A DNA stretch of 64,000 nt from Candidatus Omnitrophota bacterium. Its GTDB lineage: Bacteria; Omnitrophota; Omnitrophia; Omnitrophales; Aquincolibacteriaceae. Shown here one piece after another: positions 4,786-47,705 of this stretch (position 1 is the stretch's first letter; each line of letters begins with the position of its first letter). The DNA lies in the NCBI GenBank assembly GCA_041674705.1, contig JBAYVF010000001.1:65238-129237 (forward strand), read 5' to 3'. Position numbers and translations under genes: made by a program. Below the pieces are notes generated by a model. The model was given only the letters and a program-made list of their open reading frames with translations, had not been told where the DNA came from and searched no databases.

Positions 4786-5892
4786 ATGTTGAATTGTGCG
4801 GTTCTTGGCGCCACGGGGTATACCGGAGCCGAACTCACGAAGCTGCTTCTGGCCCATCCCCACGTCCGGGTCACCCTCTTGACCACCCGGCAGGAAAAAC
4901 CCATTGCCCTTCGCGAAGTCCTGCCGTCGGTCGCAAAAGATATGACTCTCGAGATCACGCCCTACTCCTTCGATCAGGTGAAGAAAAAGGCGGATGTGGT
5001 CTTTTTGTGCCTGCCTCACACCGAGGCGATGACCGCGGCCGAACAGCTTCTCGGAGCCGGCAAGGTGGTGATCGATCTTTCCGCGGATTTTCGCCTGAGA
5101 GATAAAAAGATCTATGAAAAATGGTATGGGGTAAATCACGTCGCGCCCCAGTATCTTTCCAAGGCCGTGTATGGGCTTTGCGAAGTGAATAAGGAAAAGA
5201 TCAAAAAAGCGGATCTGATCGCGAACCCCGGCTGCTATCCCACAGGGCCGTCCTTGGCGCTGATCCCTTTGTTGAAGAAAAAACTGATCGACCCCAGGTC
5301 CATCATCATCAATGCGGCTTCGGGTGTGAGCGGCGCCGGGAAAAAGCTTGTGACGGCGACTCATTTTTGCGAGGCGGCCGAGAATTACAGCGCCTATAAG
5401 GTGAATAAGCATCAGCATATCCCCGAGATCGAACAGACGCTTTCGGAGGCGGCCGGAAAACCCGTCAAGATCACATTTGTGCCGCACTTATTGCCCGTGA
5501 ACCGGGGTATTCTTGCGACGATCTATGTCGAAGCGACGGGAAAAGCGACGGTCCCAATACCAATCAATCGGAGCAAAGCGGAGATTGGGGTCGTCCCCGT
5601 CAACCATTTAGGAAATAAAGTCAAGACGGGGACGGAATCTCTGATCCGGAAGACTCTGGAAACGGCTTACGCCAAGGCGCCGTTCGTCAGGATCAAGCCC
5701 GCGGGACAATACCCGTGCCTGAAGGATGTGCAGCACACGAATTTTTGCGATGTGGGTGTGAGTGTCAATGAGGAAACCGGTCGGGTCGTGATCATCACCG
5801 CGATCGATAATCTCGTCAAAGGCGCGGCCGGCCAGGCGGTGCAGAACATGAACCTCCGGTTCGGTTTTCCGGAAGAAGCGGGGCTTTTGTAA
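4786..5892 (+). CDS. argC: N-acetyl-gamma-glutamyl-phosphate reductase
   Basis: MLNCAVLGATGYTGAEL Rossmann N-terminus, the active-site region NPGCYPTG, and a C-terminal DNLVKGAAGQAVQNMN. The gene carries an extra roughly 28-aa segment (see repeat 5547-5635). Confidence 0.9.
   Translation: MLNCAVLGATGYTGAELTKLLLAHPHVRVTLLTTRQEKPIALREVLPSVAKDMTLEITPYSFDQVKKKADVVFLCLPHTEAMTAAEQLLGAGKVVIDLSADFRLRDKKIYEKWYGVNHVAPQYLSKAVYGLCEVNKEKIKKADLIANPGCYPTGPSLALIPLLKKKLIDPRSIIINAASGVSGAGKKLVTATHFCEAAENYSAYKVNKHQHIPEIEQTLSEAAGKPVKITFVPHLLPVNRGILATIYVEATGKATVPIPINRSKAEIGVVPVNHLGNKVKTGTESLIRKTLETAYAKAPFVRIKPAGQYPCLKDVQHTNFCDVGVSVNEETGRVVIITAIDNLVKGAAGQAVQNMNLRFGFPEEAGLL
5547..5635. repeat. In-frame palindromic insertion inside argC
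   Basis: Two adjacent hairpins. The first is cccaat/ccaatc ... gattgggg (5553-5590). The second is a perfect 9-nt inverted repeat GTCCCCGTC (5593-5601) / GACGGGGAC (5625-5633). Together they encode TVPIPINRSKAEIGVVPVNHLGNKVKTG, which I do not recall in ArgC proteins. Confidence 0.6.
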
Positions 5893-7197: not shown

Positions 7198-8052
7198 ATG
7201 AAAGAATACATCGAAAAAGCGCAGGCCCTGGTCGAGGCGCTTCCTTACATCCAGAAATTCCGCGGTAAAGAGATCCTGATCAAGTACGGTGGCGCGGCCC
7301 TGACCTATCAGGAAGTCCGTGACATGGTGCTCCAGGACCTTGTCTTCATGAGCTATGTCGGGATCCGGCCCATTCTCATTCACGGCGGCGGAAAATTCAT
7401 CACCGATGCCATGAAGAAAAAAGGCGTCCAGAGCCAGTTCGTGAACGGACTCCGCGTGACGGACAAGGCGACGATCGAGGTCGTCAACGAAACCCTGGCC
7501 GAGCTCAACAAGAGCATTGTCCATGATATCGAACGCCTCGGCGGCTCCGCGGTCGGACTCTCCGGGTACGATGCCGAGATCCTGAACGTGGTGAAACACA
7601 CCGAGAACGGCGACGTAGGTTTTGTCGGCGATGTGTCTTCCGTGAATACGGTGCTTCTCAAGGAACTCACGGAGTTCGGAAGGATCCCGGTGATCTTTCC
7701 GGTGGGAAAAGGTCCGGACGGTGAAATGTATAACGTGAACGCGGACGAGGCGGCGGCCAATATCGCGGCCGCCATGCACGTGCCGAAATTCATGGTACTT
7801 ACCAACGTCAAAGGGATCCTCCGGGACCCCGCCCATGAAGAGACGCTGATCCCTTCGCTTCGCGTGAGCGAGACGCAGCAACTGATCGATCAGAAGATCA
7901 TCACGGGGGGCATGATCCCTAAGGTGAAGGCCTGTATCGACGCGCTTCAAGGCGGCGTCCAAAAAGCGCATATCATCGATGGCCGGATCACACACGCCCT
8001 TTTGCTCGAAATTTTTACCGATCAAGGGATCGGAACGGAGATAACGCTCTAG
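7198..8052 (+). CDS. argB: Acetylglutamate kinase
   Basis: The true start is the ATG at 7198 (MKEYIEKAQALVEALPYIQKFRGKEILIKYGGAAL). The upstream extension in the ORF track (from 6607) overlaps argJ. Amino-acid-kinase motifs (HGGG, NVNAD) are present. Confidence 0.9.
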   Translation: MKEYIEKAQALVEALPYIQKFRGKEILIKYGGAALTYQEVRDMVLQDLVFMSYVGIRPILIHGGGKFITDAMKKKGVQSQFVNGLRVTDKATIEVVNETLAELNKSIVHDIERLGGSAVGLSGYDAEILNVVKHTENGDVGFVGDVSSVNTVLLKELTEFGRIPVIFPVGKGPDGEMYNVNADEAAANIAAAMHVPKFMVLTNVKGILRDPAHEETLIPSLRVSETQQLIDQKIITGGMIPKVKACIDALQGGVQKAHIIDGRITHALLLEIFTDQGIGTEITL

Positions 8053-8123: not shown

Positions 8124-9317
8124 ATGAAAACAGCCGACGTTCAAAAATTGTACGAACAATACGTGATGCCGACCTACACCCGGGTGCCGGTGTGCCTGGT
8201 CAAAGGGAAAGGCACGCGTGTCTGGGACCTTGAAGGAAAAGAGTATCTCGATTTCTTCCCCGGCTGGGCGGTTTCCGGGATCGGCCACTGCCATCCGGTC
8301 GTGGTGAACGCGATCAAGGAGCAGGCGAAAAAGATCCTCCATATCTCGAATAATTTTTTTAATATCAAGCAGGCCGAGCTCGCGAAGACCATTTCCGAGG
8401 CGTCTTTTCCGTCGCGCGTGTTTTTCTGTAATAGCGGCGCCGAGGCGAACGAAGGCGCGATCAAATTCGCCAAAAAGTACGGGAACGAGACCGGACGCTT
8501 TGAGATCATCACCATGAAGAATTCTTTTCACGGGAGAACGCTTGCCGCGATGAGAGCCACGGGACAGGAGAAATTCCACCAGGGTTTTCAGCCGCTCATG
8601 GAAAAATTCCTCCACGCGGATTTCAACGACCTGGAGTCGGTCAAAAAACTTGTGACCGACAAAACGATCGCGATCATGCTGGAGCCGATCCAGGGAGAAG
8701 GCGGGGTCTCCGTGGCGACCCAGGAGTTTCTCCGGGGCCTGCGGAAGCTTTGCGATGAAAAAGACATGCTTCTCATCCTGGATGAAGTGCAGACCGGCGT
8801 GGGCCGCACGGGAAAAATGTTCGCGTACCAGCATTACGATCTCGAACCGGATATCATGACGCTCGCCAAGACCTTGGGCGGCGGAGTTCCGATCGGAGCT
8901 TTTGTCGTGAACCGGAAGATCAAAAAAGAAGTGTTGACCACCGGCATGCACGGCTCAACTTTCGGCGGGAACCCGCTTGTGTGCGCGGCGAGCCTCGCGG
9001 TCTTCAAGGCGATCAAAAAAGAAAAGTTGCTCACGAACACGATTCGCATGGGAGAACTTCTCGAACAGGAATTCCAGAAGCTCAAAGCAAAATATCCCGT
9101 GATCGAAAGCACGCGGGGCATTGGGCTCATGCGGGGCCTGAAGCTCAAGGAGCCCTCCGCGCCTTACGCGGATGAAGCGCGCGCTCAAGGGTTTCTTATC
9201 AACGCGACGCAAGGCGATATCCTGAGGATCATGCCTCCGATGACGGTTTCAGTTAAAGAGATCAAACTCGGTATGAAGATTTTAGACCGTGTGTTCGCGA
9301 AATTAATGAAGAAATAA
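8124..9317 (+). CDS. argD: Acetylornithine aminotransferase (class III PLP aminotransferase)
   Basis: 397-aa ORF with NSGAEANEGAIKFA, LILDEVQTGVGRTGKMFA and TLAKTLGGGVPIGA (PLP-lysine region). Arg operon context. Confidence 0.9.
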   Translation: MKTADVQKLYEQYVMPTYTRVPVCLVKGKGTRVWDLEGKEYLDFFPGWAVSGIGHCHPVVVNAIKEQAKKILHISNNFFNIKQAELAKTISEASFPSRVFFCNSGAEANEGAIKFAKKYGNETGRFEIITMKNSFHGRTLAAMRATGQEKFHQGFQPLMEKFLHADFNDLESVKKLVTDKTIAIMLEPIQGEGGVSVATQEFLRGLRKLCDEKDMLLILDEVQTGVGRTGKMFAYQHYDLEPDIMTLAKTLGGGVPIGAFVVNRKIKKEVLTTGMHGSTFGGNPLVCAASLAVFKAIKKEKLLTNTIRMGELLEQEFQKLKAKYPVIESTRGIGLMRGLKLKEPSAPYADEARAQGFLINATQGDILRIMPPMTVSVKEIKLGMKILDRVFAKLMKK

Positions 9318-9323
9318 ATGTAT

Positions 9324-9384
9324 GTCATTCCCGCGAAGGCGGGAATCCAGAAGTGGATCCCCGATAGAAGCATTCGGGGATGAC
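9324..9384. repeat. GTCAT...ATGAC nested palindromic element, copy 1
   Basis: gtcattcccgcgaaggcgggaatccagaagtggatccccgatagaagcattcggggatgac. It has terminal inverted repeats plus two internal hairpins. Located at the argD|argF junction. Confidence 0.85.
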
Positions 9385-9404: not shown

Positions 9405-10334
9405 ATGTTCAAATCATTGATTTCCATTAACGACCTCAGCACCGAAGAGATCCGGAAGATCATGGAGCTCGCGGCCAAGGTCAAGGCCCGGCCGCAGGAA
9501 GTCCGGGACGCGCTTGAAGGCCACATCTTCGGTTTTATTTTCGAGAAGCCCTCGACCCGGACTTGGGTCTCGTTTCAGGCCGGTATTTATTCGATGGGCG
9601 GTGGCGCCATTTATCTGGGTCCCGAGGATATCAAACTCGGCGTCCGGGAAGAAGTGCGGGACGTGGCGCGCGTCTTGTCGCGTTACCTTTCGGGCGTGGT
9701 TATGCGGACCTTCTCGCATTGGACCATCACCGAATTCCAGGATTATTTTGAAAAACCCGTGATCAACGGCTTAAGCGACCTCGAACATCCGTGCCAGGCG
9801 CTGGCCGATTACATGACACTTTATGAAAAGATCCCGGCGGAGAAAGATCCGGTGCTCGCGTTCGTGGGGGACGGCAATAACGTCCTGCATTCCCTGATGC
9901 TTGTCGCCGCGAAACTCGGCGCGAAGATCCGGTACGCGACGCCCAAAAAATATCAGCCCAAGCCGAAGCTTCTTGCGCTGGCCCGGCAGATCGCCAAAAA
10001 AACCGGCGCGGTGATCGAAGGTTTTCTCGACCCCGTGGAAGCCGTGAAGGGCGCGGATGCGGTCTACACGGATGTGTGGGTCAGCATGGGCGAAGAAGCC
10101 ATGCGGCAAAAAAAGCTCAAGGACTTTAAAGGCATGCAGGTCAACAAGGCGCTCCTCGCGCACGCGAAAAAAGACGCGCTTGTGATGCATTGCCTGCCGG
10201 CGCACCGGGGTGAAGAGATCACCAATGACGTGATGGAAAGTAAAAACTGCGTCGTGTTCGACGAGGCCGAGAACCGGCTCCATATTCAGAAAGCCATTTT
10301 ACTTTATCTGTTTAACCAAGGAGCAATTCAATAG
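9405..10334 (+). CDS. argF: Ornithine carbamoyltransferase
   Basis: Carbamoyl-phosphate binding motif FEKPSTRTWVSF, plus HCLPAHRGEEI. 309 aa. Confidence 0.92.
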   Translation: MFKSLISINDLSTEEIRKIMELAAKVKARPQEVRDALEGHIFGFIFEKPSTRTWVSFQAGIYSMGGGAIYLGPEDIKLGVREEVRDVARVLSRYLSGVVMRTFSHWTITEFQDYFEKPVINGLSDLEHPCQALADYMTLYEKIPAEKDPVLAFVGDGNNVLHSLMLVAAKLGAKIRYATPKKYQPKPKLLALARQIAKKTGAVIEGFLDPVEAVKGADAVYTDVWVSMGEEAMRQKKLKDFKGMQVNKALLAHAKKDALVMHCLPAHRGEEITNDVMESKNCVVFDEAENRLHIQKAILLYLFNQGAIQ

Positions 10335-11764: not shown

Positions 11765-13141
11765 ATGGCAAAGAAATTATGGGGCGGAAGATTCAAAAAG
11801 GATATGCATCCGGCGCTCAAGTGTTTCAGCTATTCGCTTGAGACGGACAAGGAACTTTTTGACGCCGAGATCTGTGTGAACGCTGCCTACGCGAAAATGC
11901 TCGCGAAAGTGGGGCTGATCACCACGGCGGAATCGAAAGCCATTTTACGCGGCCTCAAGTCCGTGGCCCGGGCCTTAAAAGGCCAGGACCTCGCGGCGTA
12001 CGCGGACAAGTACGAAGATGTCCACACGCTGATCCAGATGGAACTCGAGAAAAAAGCGGGCGCCGTGGCCAAGAAGATCCACACCGGCCGGAGCCGGAAC
12101 GACCTGGTCATCACCTCGACCCGCATTTACCTCCGTGAAAAGACCGCGGAGATCTGGGTCGGGATCAAAAAACTTCAAAAGGCGCTCGTAACCGCGGCCG
12201 ACAAAGCGAACGGTCTGATGATCCCCGGGATGACGCATCTAAGGAAAGCCCAGCCCGTGCTTCTGGCGCATCATTTACTGGCCTATGTCGAAATGCTCGA
12301 GGAAGACAATGCCCGGCTCGCGGATTCGATGAAAAGGATCAACATTTTGCCGCTCGGTTCCGCGGCCCTCGCGGGTTCCGCGCTTCCGCTCGACCAGAAA
12401 TTCCTCGCCAGGGAACTGGGGTTCTCCGGGATCGCCAAAAACAGCATGGCCGCGGTAAGCGACCGGGGCTCTCTGGCGGAATTTCTCTCCGTGCTTTCCA
12501 TTCTGTGGGCGCATCTCTCCAGGCTTTCGGAGGATTTCATTCTTTGGAATTCCGAGGCGTTCGGTTATGTAGAACTCGACGACGCGTTCGCGACCGGTTC
12601 GAGTCTTATGCCGCAAAAGAAAAACCCGGACGTGTTTGAACTCGTGCGGGGAAGGGCCGGTGTGATCTTCGGTTATCTCCAGGCCATTCTGACCGTGCAA
12701 AAAGGTCTGCCGCTTTCTTATAACCGCGATCTTCAGGAAGACAAGCCCGGCGTGTTCGATGCCGTAAAAAAGACCGCGACCGCGCTCGAGCTTCTGGCGC
12801 TGGCCGTGGGTTCGGCGACCTGGCACAAGAAGGCGCTTTTGAAATCCCTCGACGACGACAGCCTTTTCGCGACCGACATTCTGGAATATCTCGTGCAGAA
12901 AAAAGTCCCCTTCACTGAGGCCCATGAACTTGTGGGACGGACGGTGCGCCACGCGATCGAAACCGAAAAGCGGCTTCGCGAGTGGACGGTCCAGGAGTGG
13001 CAGAAATTCTCGCCCAAGTTCGGCGCGGACATCCATGATCTTTTTTGCGCGTTAGAATCCGTGAAAGGCAAAAAAACGATCGGAAGTACGCATCCCGTGC
13101 GGGTGAAGCAAGCCATCGCGGAGTGGAAAAAAAACTTGTGA
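11765..13141 (+). CDS. argH: Argininosuccinate lyase
   Basis: MAKKLWGGRF N-terminus, the fumarate-lyase signature region GSSLMPQKKNPD, and TGRSRNDLV. Confidence 0.92.
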   Translation: MAKKLWGGRFKKDMHPALKCFSYSLETDKELFDAEICVNAAYAKMLAKVGLITTAESKAILRGLKSVARALKGQDLAAYADKYEDVHTLIQMELEKKAGAVAKKIHTGRSRNDLVITSTRIYLREKTAEIWVGIKKLQKALVTAADKANGLMIPGMTHLRKAQPVLLAHHLLAYVEMLEEDNARLADSMKRINILPLGSAALAGSALPLDQKFLARELGFSGIAKNSMAAVSDRGSLAEFLSVLSILWAHLSRLSEDFILWNSEAFGYVELDDAFATGSSLMPQKKNPDVFELVRGRAGVIFGYLQAILTVQKGLPLSYNRDLQEDKPGVFDAVKKTATALELLALAVGSATWHKKALLKSLDDDSLFATDILEYLVQKKVPFTEAHELVGRTVRHAIETEKRLREWTVQEWQKFSPKFGADIHDLFCALESVKGKKTIGSTHPVRVKQAIAEWKKNL

Positions 13142-13150
13142 GGTGCCAAG

Positions 13151-14428
13151 ATGCCCAGGACTGATTTCCACGAAGAGAAGATGCACGATTTCTATTATAA
13201 GAAGGGCGAGCTTTATTGTGACAAGGCCCGCATCGCGAAGATCCTGAAAAAAACCGGCACCCCCGCTTATATCTACAGCCACAAGACCTTCGTCGAACAT
13301 CTCGCCAAGCTCCAGAAGGCGTTCCGCGCCGCGAAGCCCTTGATCTGCTATTCCGTCAAGGCCAACTCGAACCTCGCGGTGCTCCGCGCGCTCGTCAAAA
13401 AAGGCGCCGGCCTCGATATCGTTTCAGGCGGCGAACTTTTCCGCGCGAAGAAAGCGAAGTGCCTCGGGAAAAAGATCGTTTACGCCGGCGTGGGGAAGAC
13501 GGCCGAAGAGATCCGCGCCGCGATCAAGGCGCGCATCCTTCTTTTCAATGTCGAATCCATTCCGGAGCTCGAGCAGATCAACGCGATCGCCAAAAAGATG
13601 CGCAAGAAAGTGAACGTGTCGCTCCGGATCAACCCCAATGTCGATCCTCACACGCACGAATACATCACGACCGGCAAGGCCGAGACCAAGTTCGGCATCG
13701 ATTTCGAGAAAGCCCGGGAAATATTCCTGGGCTCGAAGCGTTTCACGAACGCGCTTGTGTGCGGCGTGCATGTGCACATCGGTTCCCAGATCGAGACCGG
13801 CGACCCGTTCGTCGAGGCGTTCCAGAAGATCGTGGAATTCATCGCCGAGCTCGAAGAAAGCGGCATCAAGATCAAGTTCCTGAACCTGGGCGGCGGCCTG
13901 GGAGCGATCTATAGTGACGAGAACCCGCAGACCGCGGAGGCATTCGCCAGGAAGATCCTCCCGATCTTCAAAAAACGGAAATTCCAGCTGATCTTTGAGC
14001 CGGGGCGTTTTATCGCGGCCAATAGCGGCATTCTCGCGACCCGGGTGATCTATGTGAAAGAGACCGACGTGAAGAAATTCGCGATCGTGGATGCCGGCAT
14101 GAACGATTTTATCCGGCCTGCTTTTTATAACGCGTTCCACCACATCTGGCCCGTCGTGAAAAATGAAAAAGCGCACGGATGGATCTACGACGTCGTGGGT
14201 CCGATCTGCGAGAGCGGGGATTTTTTCGCGAAAGACCGCGAGCTTCTCGAAATGCGCGCCGGCGATGCCCTGGCTATTATGACCACCGGCGCCTACGGCT
14301 TCACCATGGCCTCCAACTACAATTCCCGTCCCCGCGCCTGCGAGGTGATGGTCAAAGGCACCACCTTCAAAGTCGTCCGCAAACGCGAAACCTACCAGGA
14401 CCTCATTAAGGGCGAACGGACCGCGTAA
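13151..14428 (+). CDS. lysA: Diaminopimelate decarboxylase
   Basis: Group IV PLP decarboxylase with YSVKANSNLAVL (PLP lysine), HIGSQ, LGGGLG and GPICESGD. It ends the arg operon. The start may be the internal Met 10 codons downstream. Confidence 0.88.
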   Translation: MPRTDFHEEKMHDFYYKKGELYCDKARIAKILKKTGTPAYIYSHKTFVEHLAKLQKAFRAAKPLICYSVKANSNLAVLRALVKKGAGLDIVSGGELFRAKKAKCLGKKIVYAGVGKTAEEIRAAIKARILLFNVESIPELEQINAIAKKMRKKVNVSLRINPNVDPHTHEYITTGKAETKFGIDFEKAREIFLGSKRFTNALVCGVHVHIGSQIETGDPFVEAFQKIVEFIAELEESGIKIKFLNLGGGLGAIYSDENPQTAEAFARKILPIFKKRKFQLIFEPGRFIAANSGILATRVIYVKETDVKKFAIVDAGMNDFIRPAFYNAFHHIWPVVKNEKAHGWIYDVVGPICESGDFFAKDRELLEMRAGDALAIMTTGAYGFTMASNYNSRPRACEVMVKGTTFKVVRKRETYQDLIKGERTA

Positions 14429-26339: not shown

Positions 26340-27194
26340 ATGGAAGACCGCACCGAAAGCAATCTCACTCCTAATTCCAATCCATTTATCACAAAGGAGA
26401 TTGGGACCACCCCCGCCGGCCATTCCGGAAATGAAAACAAAGACGGGGGAGGGCTCAATTTCCTCAAAAACACTCAGATCATCATCCTCGGGCTTTGTAT
26501 CGCCGGGGCCACGATCGGGGCCAGTCTCATTTTTTCGAAGGGCTTTTTGTCCGTCACAAAATTCATGCGGGAGCAGATCACGGTGACGGGGTCGGCGCAG
26601 AAGAATATCAAAAGTGATTATGCGGTATGGATCGGGACTTTCGCGAGGCGCGAGATCCTGATGGCGGACGCTTACAAGAAGCTCGGAGAGGATCTGGGAA
26701 AGGTTCAAAAATATCTGACGGGGCAAGGGATCCCCGGACAGGACATCCTCATCAACCAGATCGAGACGGAAACAGTTTATAAGAAGAACGAGAAGGGCAA
26801 CGACACGAACACGATCGAAGGGTATCGTCTGAAGCAGTTCGTGGAACTTCGCTCGAATGATGTCGATAAGATCGCCCGGATCTCCCGGGAAGCTACGGAT
26901 CTGATCAACGAGGGGATCGAATTCTACTCCGGGAGCCCCGAGTATTCCTACACCAAGCTGGATGAGCTGAAGGTGGAGATGCTTGCCAAGGCCACCGAGA
27001 ACGCAAAGCTCCGGGCGGACAACATGGTTAAAGCTACGGGCAACAAGATCGGATTCATGCGCTCGGCCAAGATGGGTGTGTTTCAGATCACGCCGGTCAA
27101 TTCCACCGAGATCTCCGATTGGGGCGTGAACGACACAAGCTCGCTTGAGAAAAAAGTTACCGCCGTCGTCAACGCCAGTTTTTCCATCGAGTAG
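26340..27194 (+). CDS. SIMPL-domain (DUF541-like) protein
   Basis: 284 aa with an N-terminal TM segment. The C-terminal half (AKATENAKLRADNMVKATGNKIGFMRSAKMGVFQITP) resembles SIMPL/BP26-type proteins. Confidence 0.5.
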   Translation: MEDRTESNLTPNSNPFITKEIGTTPAGHSGNENKDGGGLNFLKNTQIIILGLCIAGATIGASLIFSKGFLSVTKFMREQITVTGSAQKNIKSDYAVWIGTFARREILMADAYKKLGEDLGKVQKYLTGQGIPGQDILINQIETETVYKKNEKGNDTNTIEGYRLKQFVELRSNDVDKIARISREATDLINEGIEFYSGSPEYSYTKLDELKVEMLAKATENAKLRADNMVKATGNKIGFMRSAKMGVFQITPVNSTEISDWGVNDTSSLEKKVTAVVNASFSIE

Positions 27195-34510: not shown

Positions 34511-34588
34511 TAGCCGCCTACAGGCGGATTTGATACAATACGCCCGCCTAAATTCAAGTCCTTCAATCACTTATACTGGCTTTTGTTT

Positions 34589-34650
34589 GTCATTCCCGCG
34601 AAAGCGGGAATCCAGAGAATGGATCCCCGACAGAAGCATTCGGGGATGAC
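34589..34650. repeat. GTCAT...ATGAC nested palindromic element, copy 3
   Basis: gtcattcccgcgaaagcgggaatccagagaatggatccccgacagaagcattcggggatgac. It ends at the dapF ORF-track start. Confidence 0.85.
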
Positions 34651-42100: not shown

Positions 42101-43811
42101 CAATACGAAGCTTACGGCGGAATATTCCCGGACGATCGGCCAACAAATGGAAACTTCGTTCTCGGCTGACGGCGGGATCAGCTATACGGATTTGGACCCC
42201 CTGGTTGGAAGACATACACGGCCCCAGAACGATGCTTATCTCATTCGAGGTTCTTCGGAGCCTGTGAAAGGTTTGGAAACGACGGGCTATGTCCAGGGTG
42301 TCAATCCGAGTTTTTCGGATGGTTATATGCGCGACCAGGAAGGATTGGAAAAGTATGGCGTCGCCGCACGGTACAAGTTTACGGACAGCCTGGCTATCCG
42401 GTATCGTTTCGATCACAATGCGGTTCTCAGTCAGTTGATGCCGCTGGATGAGACGGGCCTCTACGCTCCGTTCCAGGCGCTTGAGACCCAAACTGCGCAG
42501 GTTGTTTACGATGACGGGCAATATCTTGCGGAACTGGAATATCAGAACCGCAACCTGGACGAGGTCCCGATAGAGAACGAAAATCCGAGCATTGAGAACC
42601 AGATCCCTTTCAAAAACGGTGTGACGGGTAAGTTGGGCTACCACATTAACGAGCGTCTGCTCCCGTACATCAAAGTTCAGACCGCGATCGCCGGAAAGAA
42701 TGATCATCAATTCGGCGGTGGCGTGCGTTATGAGGTCCTGAATAATCTTTTCGCTTATCTGGAAGAGATGGTGGGGCCTCTTGGAGATTCGACCTATTTC
42801 GGGTTTGAACGCCAGCATGGGAACGGCGCCCGTAGTTACGCAAACATCCGCTCCCTCGATCGCGGGATCGGGGATAAAACACTTGCCACCGCTATTGGAA
42901 ATTCATTCTCGCTTACCGAAAAATCGCGCATGTATTCCGAACGCGAATATTCTTCTTATCAAGGCAGCGACGGCTACGTAGACATCCTGGGTTACGAGGG
43001 AAAAGCGGGAGATCACTGGGATTACGGGGCCAAGTACGAGCGTCGGCGCATGACGCTCACGAAAAACAGCAACTTTAACACGGGTGGCGTGAGTCTCGCC
43101 TATGCGAGCGGGAAGAAACTCCGGGCACGAACTTATTGGGAATTGCGCCGCAATCAAGATGCGCCGAAGATGGGTCAGATCGTCACGCGCAACTCTTTCA
43201 ATTATCAGCTCACCGAAGACCTGGGCTTTCTTTCTTATTTTAATTATGGAGATACCCGTCAGTACGATCCGAATAACACCCCAGCGACCTTCGTCGAGTG
43301 CAGCACCGGCTTTGCTTACCGTCCCATCAAAAACGACAAGCTGAATTTACTGGGGCGCTACACGTACCTCAAGGATATCGGGGCCGACCAACAATACGAT
43401 AATTCTTATTACAACGGTTTTCAGTTCGATCAGTCGGCCCACATTCTTGCGACGGATATCGCTTATGACCTGAATCGCTATTTCGGCCTGGTCGAGAAAT
43501 TGGCTTTCAAGCGTTCTTCGGTCCACACTTCGGTGGGCGACACGGTTTCGGTCAATAGCTTCCTGACGGCCAATCGCATCAATTTCCATGTGACGCGCAA
43601 ATGGGACCTGGCCCTGGAATACCGGATCCTGATGCAAACGTATGCCCTGGATACTTTTAAGCAGGGGGCTTTGGTCGAAATTGACCGTGAATTTTATGAA
43701 TACGTGCGGCTCGGAGTGGGGTATAATTTCACCGACTTCAGCGACGACTTGCGTGACACGAATAATTTCAAGAGTAACGGACCGTTCGTGCGTATGACCG
43801 GAAAATTTTAA
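39129..43811 (+). CDS. Very large surface protein with CARDB/DUF11-like and SdrD-B/Cna-B-like modules plus a C-terminal ~800-aa putative beta-barrel
   Basis: The true start is the ATG at 39129 (MNVQSSKKQKSSGRKKTLLPLVCFLVCLMSLNVPFAFA signal peptide). The ORF-track extension from 38598 overlaps the upstream gene. IIGKVFNDINQNTIQDKGEEGVPWVRLYTEEGIGIVTDENGLYHIPGVTPG is an SdrD-B-like module. The C-terminus FVRMTGKF ends in Phe. Confidence 0.55.
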   Translation: MNVQSSKKQKSSGRKKTLLPLVCFLVCLMSLNVPFAFANILGNSNFGTALGNGSENNWQQNFDNPCTGADPAGWPAACVFLPDLWSNATLIGNGYAASSGTQALHLKAYYQDIGFYRNSYTFQANNNVKAGDLVTFSAKAQTDIKATETVGGSIAIEFKDESDVKISEKVTSGIKINTAPLNTWTTFTAQEVAPAGTKKVVFVLKADGISGGSATYGNIVFSETNAEVNPAKLVVSASKKNVAPGDAVGINAHFTNASGNTLTGVELRATIPHGFDYTAKSIRVNGTKATYREGSLIIPIGTMTPGEVFNTSFVMLVTSGVQLGHEYSMEFTIVGSSDLSETASVKFLVQGDPVFEQGTIIGKVFNDINQNTIQDKGEEGVPWVRLYTEEGIGIVTDENGLYHIPGVTPGRHVVKIDGHSLPDGTKFITEEAYLVKTTAGIMNKANFAVLLPPSGIPENFQKDLTVMVTQGVDVSRPTLDVQISPDVVKLGVGVLEKEPVFTFDNNYGKFIKKWTVEVRDEIGQPVWTGYGIGQPPPEVTWSGIAESGLLIKPGMYSYQLKVRDSKNREDWTPLKFFEVMTKLNPKGKSNYHPEVPPVGDFNLMKDGQRSIPLTAKPVVRVQGKTQSKNKIEINGTPVTVDGTSGMFQKEFFVEPGEYSVAISATTPEGETTSFTKKIKVKDSTFFMVALGEEQLGTNWASGDMESAESEVYRDGFRQDGRVSFFLKGKLKGKFLVKAKYDSSDRRSALFTNLNPNDYYPIYGDNSTRDYQAQETTQQLFVLVEMDRSYAQWGSFKTEFTDTELATYNRTLSGLKVNFDTVSSTVYGDPKRGFKVFYAESDHRADHNELYATGGSLFYTRNRNIIEGSEKIRVEIRDKIQNMTVASYDLQEGVDYEIIYEEGRIFLSRPLSSVAASDTLTSTDILDGSPVYLIVDYEYDPNSSEASVPNEGIRAYTWVGDHLRVGATGVTEKRVGSDYDMVGVDGMLKFGRNTKLTAEYSRTIGQQMETSFSADGGISYTDLDPLVGRHTRPQNDAYLIRGSSEPVKGLETTGYVQGVNPSFSDGYMRDQEGLEKYGVAARYKFTDSLAIRYRFDHNAVLSQLMPLDETGLYAPFQALETQTAQVVYDDGQYLAELEYQNRNLDEVPIENENPSIENQIPFKNGVTGKLGYHINERLLPYIKVQTAIAGKNDHQFGGGVRYEVLNNLFAYLEEMVGPLGDSTYFGFERQHGNGARSYANIRSLDRGIGDKTLATAIGNSFSLTEKSRMYSEREYSSYQGSDGYVDILGYEGKAGDHWDYGAKYERRRMTLTKNSNFNTGGVSLAYASGKKLRARTYWELRRNQDAPKMGQIVTRNSFNYQLTEDLGFLSYFNYGDTRQYDPNNTPATFVECSTGFAYRPIKNDKLNLLGRYTYLKDIGADQQYDNSYYNGFQFDQSAHILATDIAYDLNRYFGLVEKLAFKRSSVHTSVGDTVSVNSFLTANRINFHVTRKWDLALEYRILMQTYALDTFKQGALVEIDREFYEYVRLGVGYNFTDFSDDLRDTNNFKSNGPFVRMTGKF

Positions 43812-43830
43812 GAATTTCATAATAAACTTT

Positions 43831-43892
43831 GTCATCCCCGCGAAAGCGGGGATCCAGTGAGTGGATTCCCGATAAAAACATTCTGGAATGAC
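43831..43892. repeat. GTCAT...ATGAC nested palindromic element, copy 4
   Basis: gtcatccccgcgaaagcggggatccagtgagtggattcccgataaaaacattctggaatgac. Confidence 0.8.
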
Positions 43893-43933: not shown

Positions 43934-44344
43934 ATGCTTATGAAGAATATTTTGACCGCGATGCTTGTCCTCATCCTGGGTCTCGGGTTGGCCGGATGCA
44001 ATACCGTCGGGAAAGTCCTTCCGATCAATGATGAGGTGCTCGTCTACAAACTCCCGTATGACCTGACCTATCTCCGGACGATGGAAGCGATCGATGACAA
44101 GGGCGCTTGGCAGCTTGAGGAGACCGATAAGGAAAAAGGCATCATTACCGTGCGGGACACGAATTATAGCCGTCTTGATGACTCGGATCTGAGGGTCATC
44201 ACCTTCGTGGTCAAGCGCGTGGATCGCGGGACCACATCCGTGTCCATCGACCCCAAGAGTCAAAAGGTCTGTGGCGGTAAAGAGCTTCTGAAAGCCATTA
44301 GCGAAGCTTTAGGCCGCGAGATCAAGCCCGATTCTCCATCCTAA
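43934..44344 (+). CDS. Lipoprotein, function unknown
   Basis: Lipobox LGLAGC after a hydrophobic signal sequence. 136 aa. The last five codons lie inside repeat 44327-44496. Confidence 0.6.
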   Translation: MLMKNILTAMLVLILGLGLAGCNTVGKVLPINDEVLVYKLPYDLTYLRTMEAIDDKGAWQLEETDKEKGIITVRDTNYSRLDDSDLRVITFVVKRVDRGTTSVSIDPKSQKVCGGKELLKAISEALGREIKPDSPS

Positions 44345-44496
44345 ATGAAAGGTTAATGGGGCTAGTCCTGGCCACCTTTCAGGAAAAAAATAGTCCCAAT
44401 ACTATTCAATTTCCACCGTGTGGAAATTGGGGCAATCCTGACTAACCATGATGAAAAAGAAAATGAAAGTCAGGATAGAGGCCAGGGCAAGCCCTG
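44327..44496. repeat. ~170-nt structured repeat (PHSPSK-element), copy 1, spanning the lipoprotein 3' end and the uvrA 5' end
   Basis: Aligns along its full length with 45226-45398. Contains the internal palindromes caatttccac...gtggaaattg and tcctgac...gtcagga. Bracketed by the direct repeat CAAGCCC (44323-44329 and 44488-44494). Confidence 0.8.
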
Positions 44497-47400
44497 ATCC
44501 GCCCTTGGATGCGATCCGTCTTCGTGGGGTTAAAACCCACAACTTAAAAAGTCTCGATCTCGAACTCCCGCACCGGAAACTTTATTGTATTACGGGTGTT
44601 TCCGGTTCCGGAAAGTCCTCCCTTGCTTTCGACACGCTTTACGCGGAAGGTCAGCGCCGCTACATTGAATCCGTTTCTGCCTACGCGCGTCAGTTTCTCG
44701 AGCGAATGGCCAAACCCGACCTGGAATCCGCCTCCGGCATTCCTCCCGCCCTGGCCATTCAGGCGAAAAATACGATCACGAATGCCCGCTCGACCGTCGG
44801 AACCCAAACCGAGATCAATGACCATCTGAGGGTGCTCTTTGCGCGGGCGGGCCGTCTCAGGTGTCCGGCATGCCAGACCCAGGTTGAAAAATACGATCCC
44901 TCCGGCGCGGCGGCGCATCTCATCAAAAAGTTTCCAAGCCAGGAAGCTCGTGTTGTTTTTCAGGTGGTGTTCGGGAAAAAGAGCCCGAAATATCTGCGTG
45001 AGAACCTGGAAGAACTCGAGCGGCAAGGTTTCAGCGGATTCTTCCACGGTGGCGCATGGCTTGACGCGGCCGCGCTTGCCAAAAAAAAGGCCGTTTTAAA
45101 AGAGGTTCTCGTGAGCGTGGATCTTTTGAAGATCAGCGAGTCCAATAAAGAACGGCTCACGGATTCTCTGGAGCAGGCGTTCCGTTTGGGGCGCGGGGAA
45201 GCTCAGGCGTGGGTGGCGGACAAGTCCCATTCTCCATCAAAAAAATTAGAGGTCAATGGGGCTAGTCCTGGCAACCTTTCAGGAAAAGAAAATGGTCCCA
45301 ATACTATTCAATTTCCACAGGGTGGAAATTGGGGCAATCCTGACTACCGTAATGGAAAAGAAAAAAAAAGTCAGGATGGAGGCCAGGGCAAAGTCCTGAA
45401 ATTTTCAGAAAAATCCCGCTGCGCTTCGTGCGGAAAGTCCTTTCCGGAACCATCGCCGAATCTTTTTTCTTTTAACAGCCCGCTCGGTGCGTGCCCGGCC
45501 TGCCAGGGATTCGGTCGTGTTATCACCGTCGATTGGGATCTCGTCGTTCCGGACGGCGCCAAGTCGATCAAGGACGGGGCCATCGAGCCCTGGACCAAGG
45601 CCAGCACCCGCTGGGAGCAGGGACAGTTTCTCGATTTTTGCCAGCGCAAACGCATCCCGATCCGGATGCCCTGGAAGAAACTCAAGCCCCAGGTCCGGAA
45701 ATGGATCCTTGAGGGTTATCCCGGAGACGATTTTGTCAGTGTCCGGGAATTTTTTGAATACATGAACAAAAGAACTTACAAGATGCACGTGAGGATCTTC
45801 CTTAACCGTTATCGCCGTTACGCGCCCTGTGAAACTTGCCATATGACGCGTCTGAAAACAGAGGCCCTCGACTTTCGTCTCGGACGGGAGCCTCAAGCTC
45901 CCGCCGAAGACGCATCGAATGAACAACATTCGATGCTGAGCCAGGGCAAGAACATCGCCCAGGTTCAGGCCCTGAGCATCCAGGATCTTTTGAAATTTCT
46001 TGAGACGCTCGAACTTACCCCGGAAGAAAAAGAAAAGGTGGGGCCGGTTCAGACGGAGCTTCTCAATCGCACGCGATTCTTAAAAGACGTCGGGCTCGGA
46101 TACCTGACGCTCGACCGTATGTCCCGCACGCTTTCAGGCGGGGAGGTCGAGCGTATCCATCTGGCGAGTTCTCTGGGCTCCGCTTTGGTCGACACGCTTT
46201 ATGTGCTGGATGAACCCTCGATCGGGCTTCATGAGCGCGACAATCAGATGCTGATCGCGCTCCTCCGGAAGCTTCGCGATCTCGGGAATACCGTCGTGGT
46301 CGTCGAACATGACCGGACCATGATCGGCGCTGCGGATTGTGTGATCGATCTGGGGCCTGCGGGAGGCGCCAAAGGCGGTGAGCTTATTTTTCAGGGAAGC
46401 GTCGATGAGCTCAAGAAATGTCCGGGTTCTGTGACGGGTGAGTACTTATCGGGGAAGCGTATTCTGGAGCGTCATGGGGCAAGTTCGTCCGTAGTTTTTC
46501 AATCTGTCATCCCCGAACGCTTTAATCGGGGATCCAGACTGGATTCCCGCTTTCGCGGGAATGACAAGCCTCTCAACCATGCATCGAACCATGTAATGCG
46601 TGCGGTTCGAAATAAGAGAAAAATCACGGTCCAGGGCGCGAAAGCGCACAATCTTAAAAGCATCAACGTGGAGATCCCGCTCGGGAAATTCACGGTCCTG
46701 ACGGGCGTCTCCGGTTCCGGAAAAAGCACGTTTCTTTATGAGATCCTCTACAACCATTTTTTGAAATTCAAAGGCCGTCCGGTATCGCAGGAGGAGCTCG
46801 GAACCGTGGAAAAGCTCCGCGGGTTCGAGCCTCTGGCGGAGATGGTGCTGATCGACCAGTCGCCTTTGGGCCGTTCGCCCCGCTCCAACCCGGCGACTTA
46901 TATGAAGGCGTTTGAAGATATCCGGAAGATCTTTGCGGCGACGCCTGAGGCCCGGCGCGAAGGATTCGACGCAGGTCATTTTTCTTTCAACGTCGAAAAA
47001 GGGCGTTGTCCGGTCTGCGAGGGCGATGGCGCTGTAAAAGTCGAGATGCATTTTCTTGCGGATATTTTCGTGCCGTGCGAAGAATGTCACGGGAAGCGTT
47101 TCAAGCCCGAAGTCCTCGAGATCCGGTATCAGGGCAAGCCCCATTCTCCTTCAAAAGAATCAAAGGTTAATGGGGCTAGTCCTGGCAACCTTTCAGAAAA
47201 AGAAAATGGAGGCCAGGGCAAGAATATTGATGAAGTGCTCAATATGACCGTAGACGAAGTTCTGGATTTTCTGCCGGCGAATAAAGGGCTTTTCGAGAAG
47301 CTCGCCATCTTGCAGAAGATCGGCCTGGGGTATCTCCGGCTTGGGCAGCCGACACTGACACTTTCAGGCGGAGAAGCCCAGCGTCTGAAGCTCGCCTTCG

Positions 47401-47705
47401 AACTTTCCCAGGGAAGTTCCAGCCCATCCTTGTATCTCTTGGATGAACCGACGACCGGGCTTCACGAAGATGATGTGCGGCATCTTATCCGGGCCTTTGA
47501 GGAACTTCTGGATCGCGGGCATTCGCTCCTTGTGATCGAGCATCATTTGGGTTTGATAGGGCTCGCGGACCATGTGATCGACCTGGGGCCCGAAGGTGGC
47601 GATCAGGGCGGGGAAGTGATGTATCAAGGGAATATTCCGGGTTTGATGGCGTGTGAGCGCTCCTATACGGGGAGGTATCTGAAGAAATATCTCGAAAAGG
47701 AGTAA
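44448..47705 (+). CDS. uvrA: Excinuclease ABC subunit A, carrying three in-frame repeat insertions
   Basis: THNLKSLDLELP, GVSGSGKSSLAFDTLYAEGQRRY, both ABC signature/Walker sets and the zinc-finger cysteines are all present. The ATG at 44448 lies inside a repeat. TTG at 44505 would give M-DAIRLRGVKTHNLK, the canonical UvrA N-terminus. Confidence 0.9.
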   Translation: MMKKKMKVRIEARASPDPPLDAIRLRGVKTHNLKSLDLELPHRKLYCITGVSGSGKSSLAFDTLYAEGQRRYIESVSAYARQFLERMAKPDLESASGIPPALAIQAKNTITNARSTVGTQTEINDHLRVLFARAGRLRCPACQTQVEKYDPSGAAAHLIKKFPSQEARVVFQVVFGKKSPKYLRENLEELERQGFSGFFHGGAWLDAAALAKKKAVLKEVLVSVDLLKISESNKERLTDSLEQAFRLGRGEAQAWVADKSHSPSKKLEVNGASPGNLSGKENGPNTIQFPQGGNWGNPDYRNGKEKKSQDGGQGKVLKFSEKSRCASCGKSFPEPSPNLFSFNSPLGACPACQGFGRVITVDWDLVVPDGAKSIKDGAIEPWTKASTRWEQGQFLDFCQRKRIPIRMPWKKLKPQVRKWILEGYPGDDFVSVREFFEYMNKRTYKMHVRIFLNRYRRYAPCETCHMTRLKTEALDFRLGREPQAPAEDASNEQHSMLSQGKNIAQVQALSIQDLLKFLETLELTPEEKEKVGPVQTELLNRTRFLKDVGLGYLTLDRMSRTLSGGEVERIHLASSLGSALVDTLYVLDEPSIGLHERDNQMLIALLRKLRDLGNTVVVVEHDRTMIGAADCVIDLGPAGGAKGGELIFQGSVDELKKCPGSVTGEYLSGKRILERHGASSSVVFQSVIPERFNRGSRLDSRFRGNDKPLNHASNHVMRAVRNKRKITVQGAKAHNLKSINVEIPLGKFTVLTGVSGSGKSTFLYEILYNHFLKFKGRPVSQEELGTVEKLRGFEPLAEMVLIDQSPLGRSPRSNPATYMKAFEDIRKIFAATPEARREGFDAGHFSFNVEKGRCPVCEGDGAVKVEMHFLADIFVPCEECHGKRFKPEVLEIRYQGKPHSPSKESKVNGASPGNLSEKENGGQGKNIDEVLNMTVDEVLDFLPANKGLFEKLAILQKIGLGYLRLGQPTLTLSGGEAQRLKLAFELSQGSSSPSLYLLDEPTTGLHEDDVRHLIRAFEELLDRGHSLLVIEHHLGLIGLADHVIDLGPEGGDQGGEVMYQGNIPGLMACERSYTGRYLKKYLEKE
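45226..45398. repeat. PHSPSK-element, copy 2, in-frame inside uvrA
   Basis: Encodes SHSPSKKLEVNGASPGNLSGKENGPNTIQFPQGGNWGNPDYRNGKEKKSQDGGQGKV, located just before the ...FSEKSRCASCG zinc-finger region. Bracketed by AAGTCC (45222-45227 and 45391-45396). Confidence 0.85.
46506..46565. repeat. GTCAT...ATGAC nested palindromic element, copy 5, in-frame inside uvrA
   Basis: 60 nt: gtcatccccgaacgctttaatcggggatccagactggattcccgctttcgcgggaatgac. Translated as VIPERFNRGSRLDSRFRGND in the linker between the two UvrA halves. Confidence 0.85.
47139..47222. repeat. PHSPSK-element, copy 3 (short form), in-frame inside uvrA
   Basis: 84 nt encoding PHSPSKESKVNGASPGNLSEKENGGQGK, inserted within the conserved YxGK|NIDEVLxMT segment. 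It lacks the 84-nt inner module of copy 2 (45296-45379). Flanked by the 9-nt direct repeat CAGGGCAAG (47130-47138 and 47214-47222). Confidence 0.85.

Follow-up and report, generated by a model that had tools for sequence, protein, structure and literature searches.

Why should a single DNA-repair gene of a bacterium of the phylum Omnitrophota contain the same short segment of DNA several times without losing its reading frame? The question is raised by a 64-kb piece of an Omnitrophota metagenome contig (64,000 nucleotides of contig JBAYVF010000001.1, assembly GCA_041674705.1; this whole stretch is referred to as the window), where a structured repeat is present three times at or in uvrA. An initial annotation, made from the letters alone, had described the repeat and likened it to the Rickettsia palindromic elements (RPEs), and the three copies have been confirmed at essentially the same coordinates. 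The repeat very probably belongs to a non-autonomous family of mobile DNA of Omnitrophota that resembles the RPEs, with a two-hairpin unit of about 84 nt that would be copied into DNA 3' of a motif identical to its own 3' end, and with in-frame copies that would be translated. The copies, numbered 1 to 3 along the uvrA region, and their host genes are as follows.

44327-44491, + strand: copy 1, long form, 165 nt, from the end of the lipoprotein gene into the called uvrA ORF.
44327-44393, 44394-44478 and 44479-44491, + strand: parts of copy 1, namely the outer 5' part, the inner module (85 nt) and the outer 3' end.
45225-45392, + strand: copy 2, long form, 168 nt, in frame in uvrA at site A, between WVA(D/G)K and VLKFSEK.
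45225-45295 plus 45380-45392, + strand: outer part of copy 2.
45296-45379, + strand: inner module of copy 2, 84 nt, nested in the A-rich hairpin-B loop, where it follows AAAATGG and ends ..GGATGG.
47139-47222, + strand: copy 3, short form, 84 nt or 28 codons, in frame in uvrA at site D, between YQGK and NIDEV, with CAGGGCAAG on either side.
44505-47705, + strand: the host gene uvrA from its probable ancestral TTG at 44505; the called open reading frame (ORF) is 44448-47705, 1085 aa.
43934-44344, + strand: lipoprotein-like gene upstream of uvrA, with final codons and stop now supplied by copy 1.

A 28-nt core of the repeat occurs three times in the window, against 0 occurrences expected from 100 shuffles. 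The specific outer subfamily to which the three copies belong is low in copy number and concentrated in uvrA rather than scattered through the 64 kb. The long copies 1 and 2 consist of the short form plus the inner module, so the difference between long and short forms is indeed this module, as first described (84 nt in copy 2, 85 nt in copy 1), and in this window the module was found only at 44394-44478 and 45296-45379. The direct repeats said to bracket the copies are also present, CAAGCCC at copy 1, AAGTCC at copy 2 and CAGGGCAAG at copy 3. They are not simple target duplications, as their last 4-10 nt are the element's own 3' end (..CCAGGGCAAG).

Comparison with other UvrA proteins shows that the segments are insertions. 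Solved UvrA structures (2r6f, 3pih, 9gxk, and 3zqj) can be aligned before and after each segment and do not contain the segments themselves. Query residues 253-311 (copy 2) and 898-922 (copy 3) are unmatched in 2r6f or 9gxk, and the alignment breaks exactly at the repeats; Bacillus UvrA reads YKGK-NIAEVL without interruption where the window has YQGK, 28 further residues, and NIDEVL. Among 49 aligned Omnitrophota orthologues with a native length of about 920 aa, the majority lack each segment with exact junctions, including most of those at 72-95% identity. The insertion interpretation has therefore passed the comparison with orthologues, both in unrelated bacteria with solved UvrAs and within the phylum. 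Some copies are common to several related species at one site, as ancestral or lineage-specific parts of UvrA would be. Such an origin, or an assembly artefact, can nevertheless be dismissed with near certainty: the segments are absent from the solved UvrAs and from most orthologues with exact junctions, the same DNA occurs in unrelated genes and in an intergenic region, and it has been found in independent NCBI, ENA, and JGI assemblies. An AlphaFold model, built on the orthologue alignment, contains long coils with a predicted local distance difference test score below 50 at residues 240-294, 658-703, and 879-903, which correspond to copy 2, an unrelated insert and copy 3, respectively, and lie between folded blocks. 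The model predicts that the inserts sit where the UvrA fold tolerates them, as disordered loops.

Protein comparison, with the DNA checked, revealed that five separate UvrA sites are occupied across related metagenome-assembled genomes (MAGs).

Site N: upstream of the uvrA gene.
Site A: between WVAGK and VLKFSEK.
Site B: between LIQGK and NIAEV.
Site C: in the linker that joins the halves of the protein.
Site D: between YQGK and NIDEV.

Occupancy of these sites is patchy on the UvrA tree. The UvrA proteins P0002 and P0011 are 95% identical; sites A and D are filled in P0002 only, and the corresponding junctions of P0011 are exactly empty. Hairpins placed between short direct repeats would permit precise loss, and such loss would account for patchy occupancy among close relatives. 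In the UvrA P0012, site D is empty and RDR stands in place of the otherwise invariant QGK before NIDEV, which is possibly the footprint of an imprecise loss.

The initial annotation had counted three insertions in one repair gene. Copies 2 and 3 are in frame in uvrA as stated, but copy 1 was inserted in the final codons of the lipoprotein gene, after ..GAGATCAAG, and gives that gene a new C-terminus, KPDSPS, followed by the stop TAA. The ATG at 44448 with which the called uvrA ORF starts lies inside the inner module of copy 1. The ORF from this ATG uses another frame for the 3' part of copy 1, and copies 2 and 3 are read in the frame of uvrA, in agreement with the remark that the element is open in two frames. 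At empty orthologous N sites (L040 and L044), GAGATCAAG is directly followed by TCCTGA, then by 7 nt and the TTG start of uvrA, and for this reason the ancestral uvrA start in the window is probably TTG 44505. Because the lipoprotein stop is only 7 nt ahead of TTG in the empty sites, their spacing also suggests translational coupling of the lipoprotein gene and uvrA, which the insertion would have disrupted. Short N-site copies in the upstream regions of L018, L028, and L013 bring an in-frame ATG (GGTTAATGGGGCTAG) that is called as the uvrA start (MGLVLATFQEKKMEARASPDPP-LDAI..).

The repeat is not limited to uvrA. When 185,579 species genomes, with each species represented by one genome, were scanned for exact 18-mer matches, 13 true copies emerged, every one in an Omnitrophota MAG; a scan of metagenomes added 15 true loci with 16 copies. 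At least 12 host genes besides uvrA have been found in related MAGs and metagenomes, and diverged relatives occur in two other genes of the window, so the repeat does occur elsewhere, as expected of an insertion. These hosts encode PolA, AddB (in two species, one with two inserts), a Ski2-like helicase, XerD, GltX, and UbiD, and further a CMD-family protein, LspA, an RnfC-like protein, ferredoxin-domain proteins, a helix-turn-helix regulator, and an MGS-like protein. One copy, in L002, lies between genes. DNA-repair genes seem enriched among the hosts; sampling of the loci started from seeds, and the host genes are long. Collections of plasmids and phages gave no match. In viral contigs the inner-module pattern had no match, and the outer 17-mer matched once, by chance (L019), outside any element. 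A HMMER search with a 31-aa peptide against 1.84 billion cluster representatives gave three matches (P0121-P0123), a number that is not a census because representatives at 50% identity seldom carry the insert. Searches of the literature found no description of such elements in Omnitrophota. One metagenome contig (L024) holds four family members within 6 kb, at 7301-7386, 8716-8802, 9533-9615, and 13082-13249, falling, in this order, in an RnfC-like gene, in an ORF with no name, between genes, and in PolA, and all on one strand; clustering of insertions is therefore not limited to uvrA.

All coding copies recovered by the search with a DNA pattern are 84, 96 or 168 nt long, sense-oriented and open in the frame of the host. 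They share one hydrophilic frame, in which K is followed by S or P and then by HSPSKELKVNGASPGNLSGKENGGQGK; VNGASPGNLSEK is an example of the peptide predicted from an insert. Six copies that run beyond the lipoprotein stop measure 82, 82, 82, 165, 166, and 167 nt. The multiple-of-three lengths of coding copies and the indels in copies past the stop support the view that the former are translated through, presumably as disordered loops. Within genes, only copies that keep the frame and encode a hydrophilic, disordered peptide would survive, and these would be translated as surface loops of UvrA and other proteins, as with the RPEs.

Bypass of a segment by the ribosome has precedents in T4 gene 60 and in the mitochondrial 'byp' elements, which have matched take-off and landing codons and a stop or a closed frame in the gap. 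The Omnitrophota segments might similarly be skipped by ribosomes hopping between matching AAG..AAG codons, or be removed after transcription like introns, so that native UvrA is made. Identical codons border each insert, the first hairpin takes in the final bases of the 5' flanking codon, and the nucleotides are unexpectedly well conserved. Yet no stop codon follows the 'take-off' codon, and all the pattern-found coding copies are open and divisible by three in length, as expected if the inserts are translated, a constraint that removal would make needless. With 28 or 56 codons, the units fall below the size of inteins and of group I or II introns. Rfam contained no match at gathering thresholds, and thus no intron or ribozyme, and only chance-level ones at E ≤ 10. 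Removal or bypass must be considered very improbable, and the ribosome-bypass element, the intein, and the group I or II intron have been rejected as candidates.

The short form folds into two hairpins (z = -4.8), hairpin A formed by AGCCCCATT and AATGGGGCT, and hairpin B formed by GTCCTGGC and GCCAGGGC around an A-rich loop. The long form has a similar score (z = -4.7), and its inner module adds two further hairpins within the loop of hairpin B. The inverted repeats that led to the module being called palindromic, caatttccac/gtggaaattg and tcctgac/gtcagga, are present as described. No terminal inverted repeats were found in the element; neither of the termini YCCCATTC.. and ..CCAGGGCAAG is the inverted copy of the other, and all inverted repeats belong to internal hairpins. 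In an alignment of 21 inner-type or stand-alone units, compensatory changes were seen at 6 of the 8 pairs of hairpin B and at 3 of 6 in the inner stem of hairpin A. Paired cells made up 93.9%, compared with 87.6% in shuffles, of which none in 500 reached the observed value, and with 30-51% when the partners were slid. With regard to the strand on which a functional hairpin would form, G:T and A:C combinations numbered 19 and 14, one fixed T:G pair being set aside.

Both the inner and the outer units are 84 nt long, and a profile made from inner modules also recovers outer units. Their common plan is YCCCAWT, hairpin A, AWTGGGGC-N-TCCTGRC, an A-rich loop, GYCAGG, and a final RG. Judged by sequence, the inner module and the outer element are homologues that have diverged. 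That it is a nested element, as had been suspected, is borne out by its presence and absence at orthologous sites, its two positions in the outer element and its stand-alone relatives. At site N the module is absent in L018 (short form) and present in the window, L020, and L037 (long form). At site A of UvrA the short form is found in L005, L013, and L030 and the long form in the window and L034; at the UbiD site L009 and L014 have the short form and L004 the long one. In L040, L009, and L039 the module occupies an alternative position, after GCTAG rather than AAAATRG. In L039 both positions are filled, and hairpin A contains in addition a perfect palindrome of 21 nt. This palindrome (CCTGCCTGCCGGACAGGCAGG, peptide LPAGQAG) was observed within the outer hairpin A at about 3205-3225 and about 1828-1848 of L039 and at site A of P0003, and is a third level of nesting. 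Two diverged, stand-alone members of the superfamily are located elsewhere in the window.

5549-5634, + strand: member of the inner-module type that keeps the frame of ArgC and is itself read in another frame (VPIPINRSKAEIGVVPVNHLGNKVKTG).
26368-26452, + strand: member in the N-terminal part of a SIMPL/DUF541 ORF.

The ArgC segment is an insertion relative to solved ArgC structures, and GACGG is present both in its flank and at its 3' end.

Each outer copy is preceded by ..CAAG (once CATG) and itself ends ..CCAGGGCAAG, and the 5' flank repeats the element's own 3' end over 4-10 nt, by our count over at least 6 nt at 9 of 14 independent sites. The match extends to 9-10 nt at sites B and D, which are the paralogous QGK-NI(A/D)EV positions of the two ATPase halves of UvrA; this partly explains why uvrA has been hit so often. 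Inner units follow ..TRG and end ..GGATRG, and in stand-alone relatives the flank and end are GACGG/GACGG, GGCGG/GGCGG, and ATGG/ATGG. Across the family the direct repeats are 3-10 nt long, one of the two copies being the conserved end of the element, and their variable bases covary. A mobile unit would accordingly be one that is copied into DNA directly 3' of a short motif that exactly matches its 3' terminus, (CAGG)GCAAG for the outer subfamily and (A/C)T(A/G)G for the inner. Nesting would arise because the target motif of the inner subfamily occurs in the loop and in the CTAG of the outer unit; an inner unit would enter the AAAATRG loop, or insert after CTAG, and produce composites of 168 nt and longer. 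Tentatively, and with some doubt, such units may be mobilised in trans by a HUH-type transposase of the IS91, IS200/IS605 or RAYT kind acting on hairpins of single-stranded DNA. All family members of the window are on the + strand, where the GC skew is positive throughout and where 46 of the 54 called ORFs lie. The contig is probably part of one replichore with the + strand leading, and the copies would have the + orientation if they had entered the template of the lagging strand, but gene direction is a confounder here.

Several observations weigh against a mobile family of this kind, and the first of them concern the enzyme and the ends. The subfamily is low-copy, with the 13 copies in 185,579 species genomes and the 15 loci and 16 copies in metagenomes given above. 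No transposase was found among the best 25 Pfam families listed for the ORFs of the window, and a crude scan of 378 kb of related DNA for HUH motifs found nothing, neither a Y1 enzyme nor a RAYT. A possible autonomous parent at L016, where copies of the 5' half and the 3' half lie 3.4 kb apart, was rejected, as inspection by eye of the enclosed DNA showed a histidine kinase and a glycogen-synthase-like ORF and no transposon. The inner subfamily uses ATRG or CTAG as its target, which is not a tetranucleotide of the IS91 type. In inner modules verified at the DNA level, the variable base of the flank equals that of the element end (ATGG..ATGG or ATAG..ATAG) in 12 cases and differs in one (L037), and the composite of L039 holds one A..A and one G..G module. 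The same agreement is seen in CATG..CATG (L017) and GACAAG..GACAAG (L026 and L029). It looks like a true short duplication or a correction of mismatches, and is not what HUH cleavage predicts.

These ends could also be produced without a transposase, by template switching at microhomologies during replication. A nascent strand ending ..GGCAAG (or ..ATRG) would switch to the same motif in front of an existing copy, copy the unit as far as its identical 3' end and re-anneal where it started, and slippage in reverse would delete the unit precisely. The identity of the target with the element's 3' end over 3-10 nt, with its variable length, fits such a process, and so does the concordant variable base, as if the re-annealed end had been corrected to the template. 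Copies are clustered in one gene, uvrA offers two perfect matches of 9-10 nt at the paralogous sites B and D, precise empty sites are present in close relatives, and no transposase was seen in the listed Pfam families or in the 378-kb scan. On the other hand, copies occur in many unlinked genes and in different species, they have a strong sense-strand bias, and their architecture is kept, with compensating stems, across diverged subfamilies, which is typical of ends recognised by an enzyme. Template switching, which together with an HUH-type enzyme in trans makes up the two models of movement still considered, is on balance rather unlikely.

The remaining observations that weigh against mobility concern the conservation of the copies in place. 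Orthologous copies are 89-98% identical, compared with 46-78% at third codon positions in the 240 nt on each side. In three pairs found through the host protein and not through the 18-mer, the element is 86-93% identical and its third positions 82-93%, compared with 50-67% at flanking third positions. Third codon positions within orthologous copies are 82-100% identical overall, and the estimate of conservation is partly inflated because copies were chosen by an exact 18-mer. Copies also group by site and not by genome, which favours inheritance in place. In the outer copies the first position of the codon varies most (0.133, compared with 0.065 and 0.058 at the other two), and therefore the peptide is not what is conserved. 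Conservation above that of flanking synonymous sites is not what a purely selfish or passive insert predicts. It could result from a function of the hairpins, from upkeep by a partner enzyme as in REPIN-RAYT systems, or from the copies having spread more recently than their flanks imply. REPINs pass down by vertical inheritance and stay conserved where they are; REPs are extragenic sequences of 20-40 nt, headed by GTAG or CGTC and arranged in inverted pairs.

The same conservation would be expected if the repeats were functional cis-acting modules kept by the host at the nucleotide level within coding sequence. The pair of hairpins might be bound on the sense strand by a dedicated protein or RNA that marks uvrA, polA, addB, xerD, and others for common control, for example as a post-transcriptional tag of repair and replication genes, or the repeats might be sites of a domesticated RAYT-like enzyme in an intragenic, vertically inherited partnership of the REPIN-RAYT type. 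Orthologous copies are 86-98% identical when the protein-found pairs are included, in each case above flanking third positions, and they group by site; the constraint acts on nucleotides and stems and not on the peptide; UvrA, PolA, AddB, the helicase, and XerD are among about 17 host genes; and N-site copies provide uvrA with an in-frame ATG. Against this stand the exact empty sites of most close orthologues, which lack each insert, the decayed copies of L044, L042, and L015, and the lack of any Rfam match. The host list may merely mirror gene length and the neighbourhoods sampled, and the conservation is partly due to selection by the 18-mer. Functional modules, in either form, are improbable as the explanation. 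If they were correct, insertion by the element's own 3' end with copying of the variable base would reflect an undescribed copy-in mechanism. The best-supported reading is still a mobile family that proliferates and decays as related subfamilies.

Among known systems the RPEs offer the closest comparison in behaviour. Ogata et al. (2000, 2002; summarised in PMC10969869) have described RPEs as in-frame palindromic repeats in protein-coding genes. The Omnitrophota element is likewise a repeated palindromic element in frame in coding genes, and its insert positions are compatible with the host fold according to the AlphaFold prediction. Both consist of short palindromic repeats in unrelated housekeeping genes, are read as protein and form several subfamilies with decayed copies; no transposase is known for RPEs, and none was found for the Omnitrophota element in the DNA scanned. 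The comparison made in the initial annotation is thus apt as a likeness of behaviour and not as membership in the family. Omnitrophota is an unrelated phylum, the comparison is not one of sequence, and the unit measures 84 nt instead of about 100-150 bp. The Omnitrophota units also nest at defined motifs, adjoin a motif identical to their own 3' end, have hit uvrA at five sites, and are more conserved between orthologues than nearby synonymous sites.

Other systems share the manner of insertion. In the IS91 family, which inserts next to tetranucleotides of the GAAC/CAAG type, CAAG is a documented target (IS801); members of the family have no inverted repeats, carry the target tetranucleotide at their own left end, have a GC-rich stem-loop and give rise to miniature derivatives that are mobilised in trans (PMC3189936). 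The Omnitrophota element also lacks terminal inverted repeats, adjoins a specific tetranucleotide, CAAG, carries the same tetranucleotide at its other end and has a GC-rich stem-loop near one end. The combination of no inverted repeats with CAAG in flank and end was found for the outer subfamily (with CATG at one site) and not for the inner subfamily, which uses ATRG or CTAG. In contrast to IS91, no HUH-Y2 transposase was found among the listed Pfam families of the window or in the 378-kb scan, the unit is 84 nt and not a fragment of 229-679 nt as in IS801, and flank and element end covary. GTAG-tagged REPs have been described as well (PMC3733652). With IS200/IS605 and the REP/REPIN elements, the Omnitrophota units share hairpins at both ends, possibly active as single strands, insertion 3' of a short motif without a classical duplication, and strand bias; a Y1 transposase was not found in the 378 kb. 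Membership among the REP/REPIN-RAYT elements has been rejected, as the units are mostly intragenic, are 84 nt long with two unlike hairpins and lack a GTAG head, and no RAYT was seen in the HUH-motif scan. [quoted passage not shown] MITEs have terminal inverted repeats and target duplications of fixed length derived from a DDE insertion sequence, whereas the Omnitrophota family lacks terminal inverted repeats and apparently also a fixed duplication, its direct repeats being 3-10 nt long, and a classical MITE has been rejected.

A new family in a new phylum would thereby be added to a known kind of element, with the same behaviour in free-living or epibiotic bacteria of a candidate phylum. To our knowledge, in-frame protein-coding palindromes have so far been treated as a peculiarity of Rickettsia. 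The rules are sharper and testable in the Omnitrophota family, with a fixed unit of 28 codons, nesting of the element in itself at set motifs, a target that reproduces the 3' end of the element, and precise loss. Insertions have struck a single repair gene at five sites, and two of these are the paralogous motifs in its duplicated ATPase halves. The family is thus a tractable case of how hairpin repeats move without inverted repeats, how proteins gain disordered loops and why some copies outlast nearby synonymous sites. In practical terms, the inserts mislead gene callers on start codons, lengthen proteins and split protein clusters in the annotation of metagenomes.

Other repeats were also seen in the window. 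An unrelated repeat of 63 nt lies at 46505-46567, with further copies at about 9300-9365, 34565-34630, and 43810-43872, these three on the minus strand. It has terminal inverted repeats of 11 nt (TGTCATCCCCG and CGGGAATGACA) and, internally, two hairpins. Of its copies, three lie between genes and one is in frame in the linker between the halves of UvrA (..VIPERFNRGSRLDSRFRGNDK..), where it was found only in the window and P0001 among the orthologues. A segment of 60 nt in uvrA at 45879-45938 (LGREPQAPAEDASNEQHSML), directly upstream of site B, is shared with the eight closest orthologues only, folds into two perfect hairpins (z = -7.7) and occurs once in the window; possibly it is one more hairpin insertion, of a different kind. 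The window also contains genes for arginine and lysine biosynthesis, a HinP1I-type restriction enzyme with a C5 methylase, and, just upstream, an SdrD_B-like ORF of 1737 aa.

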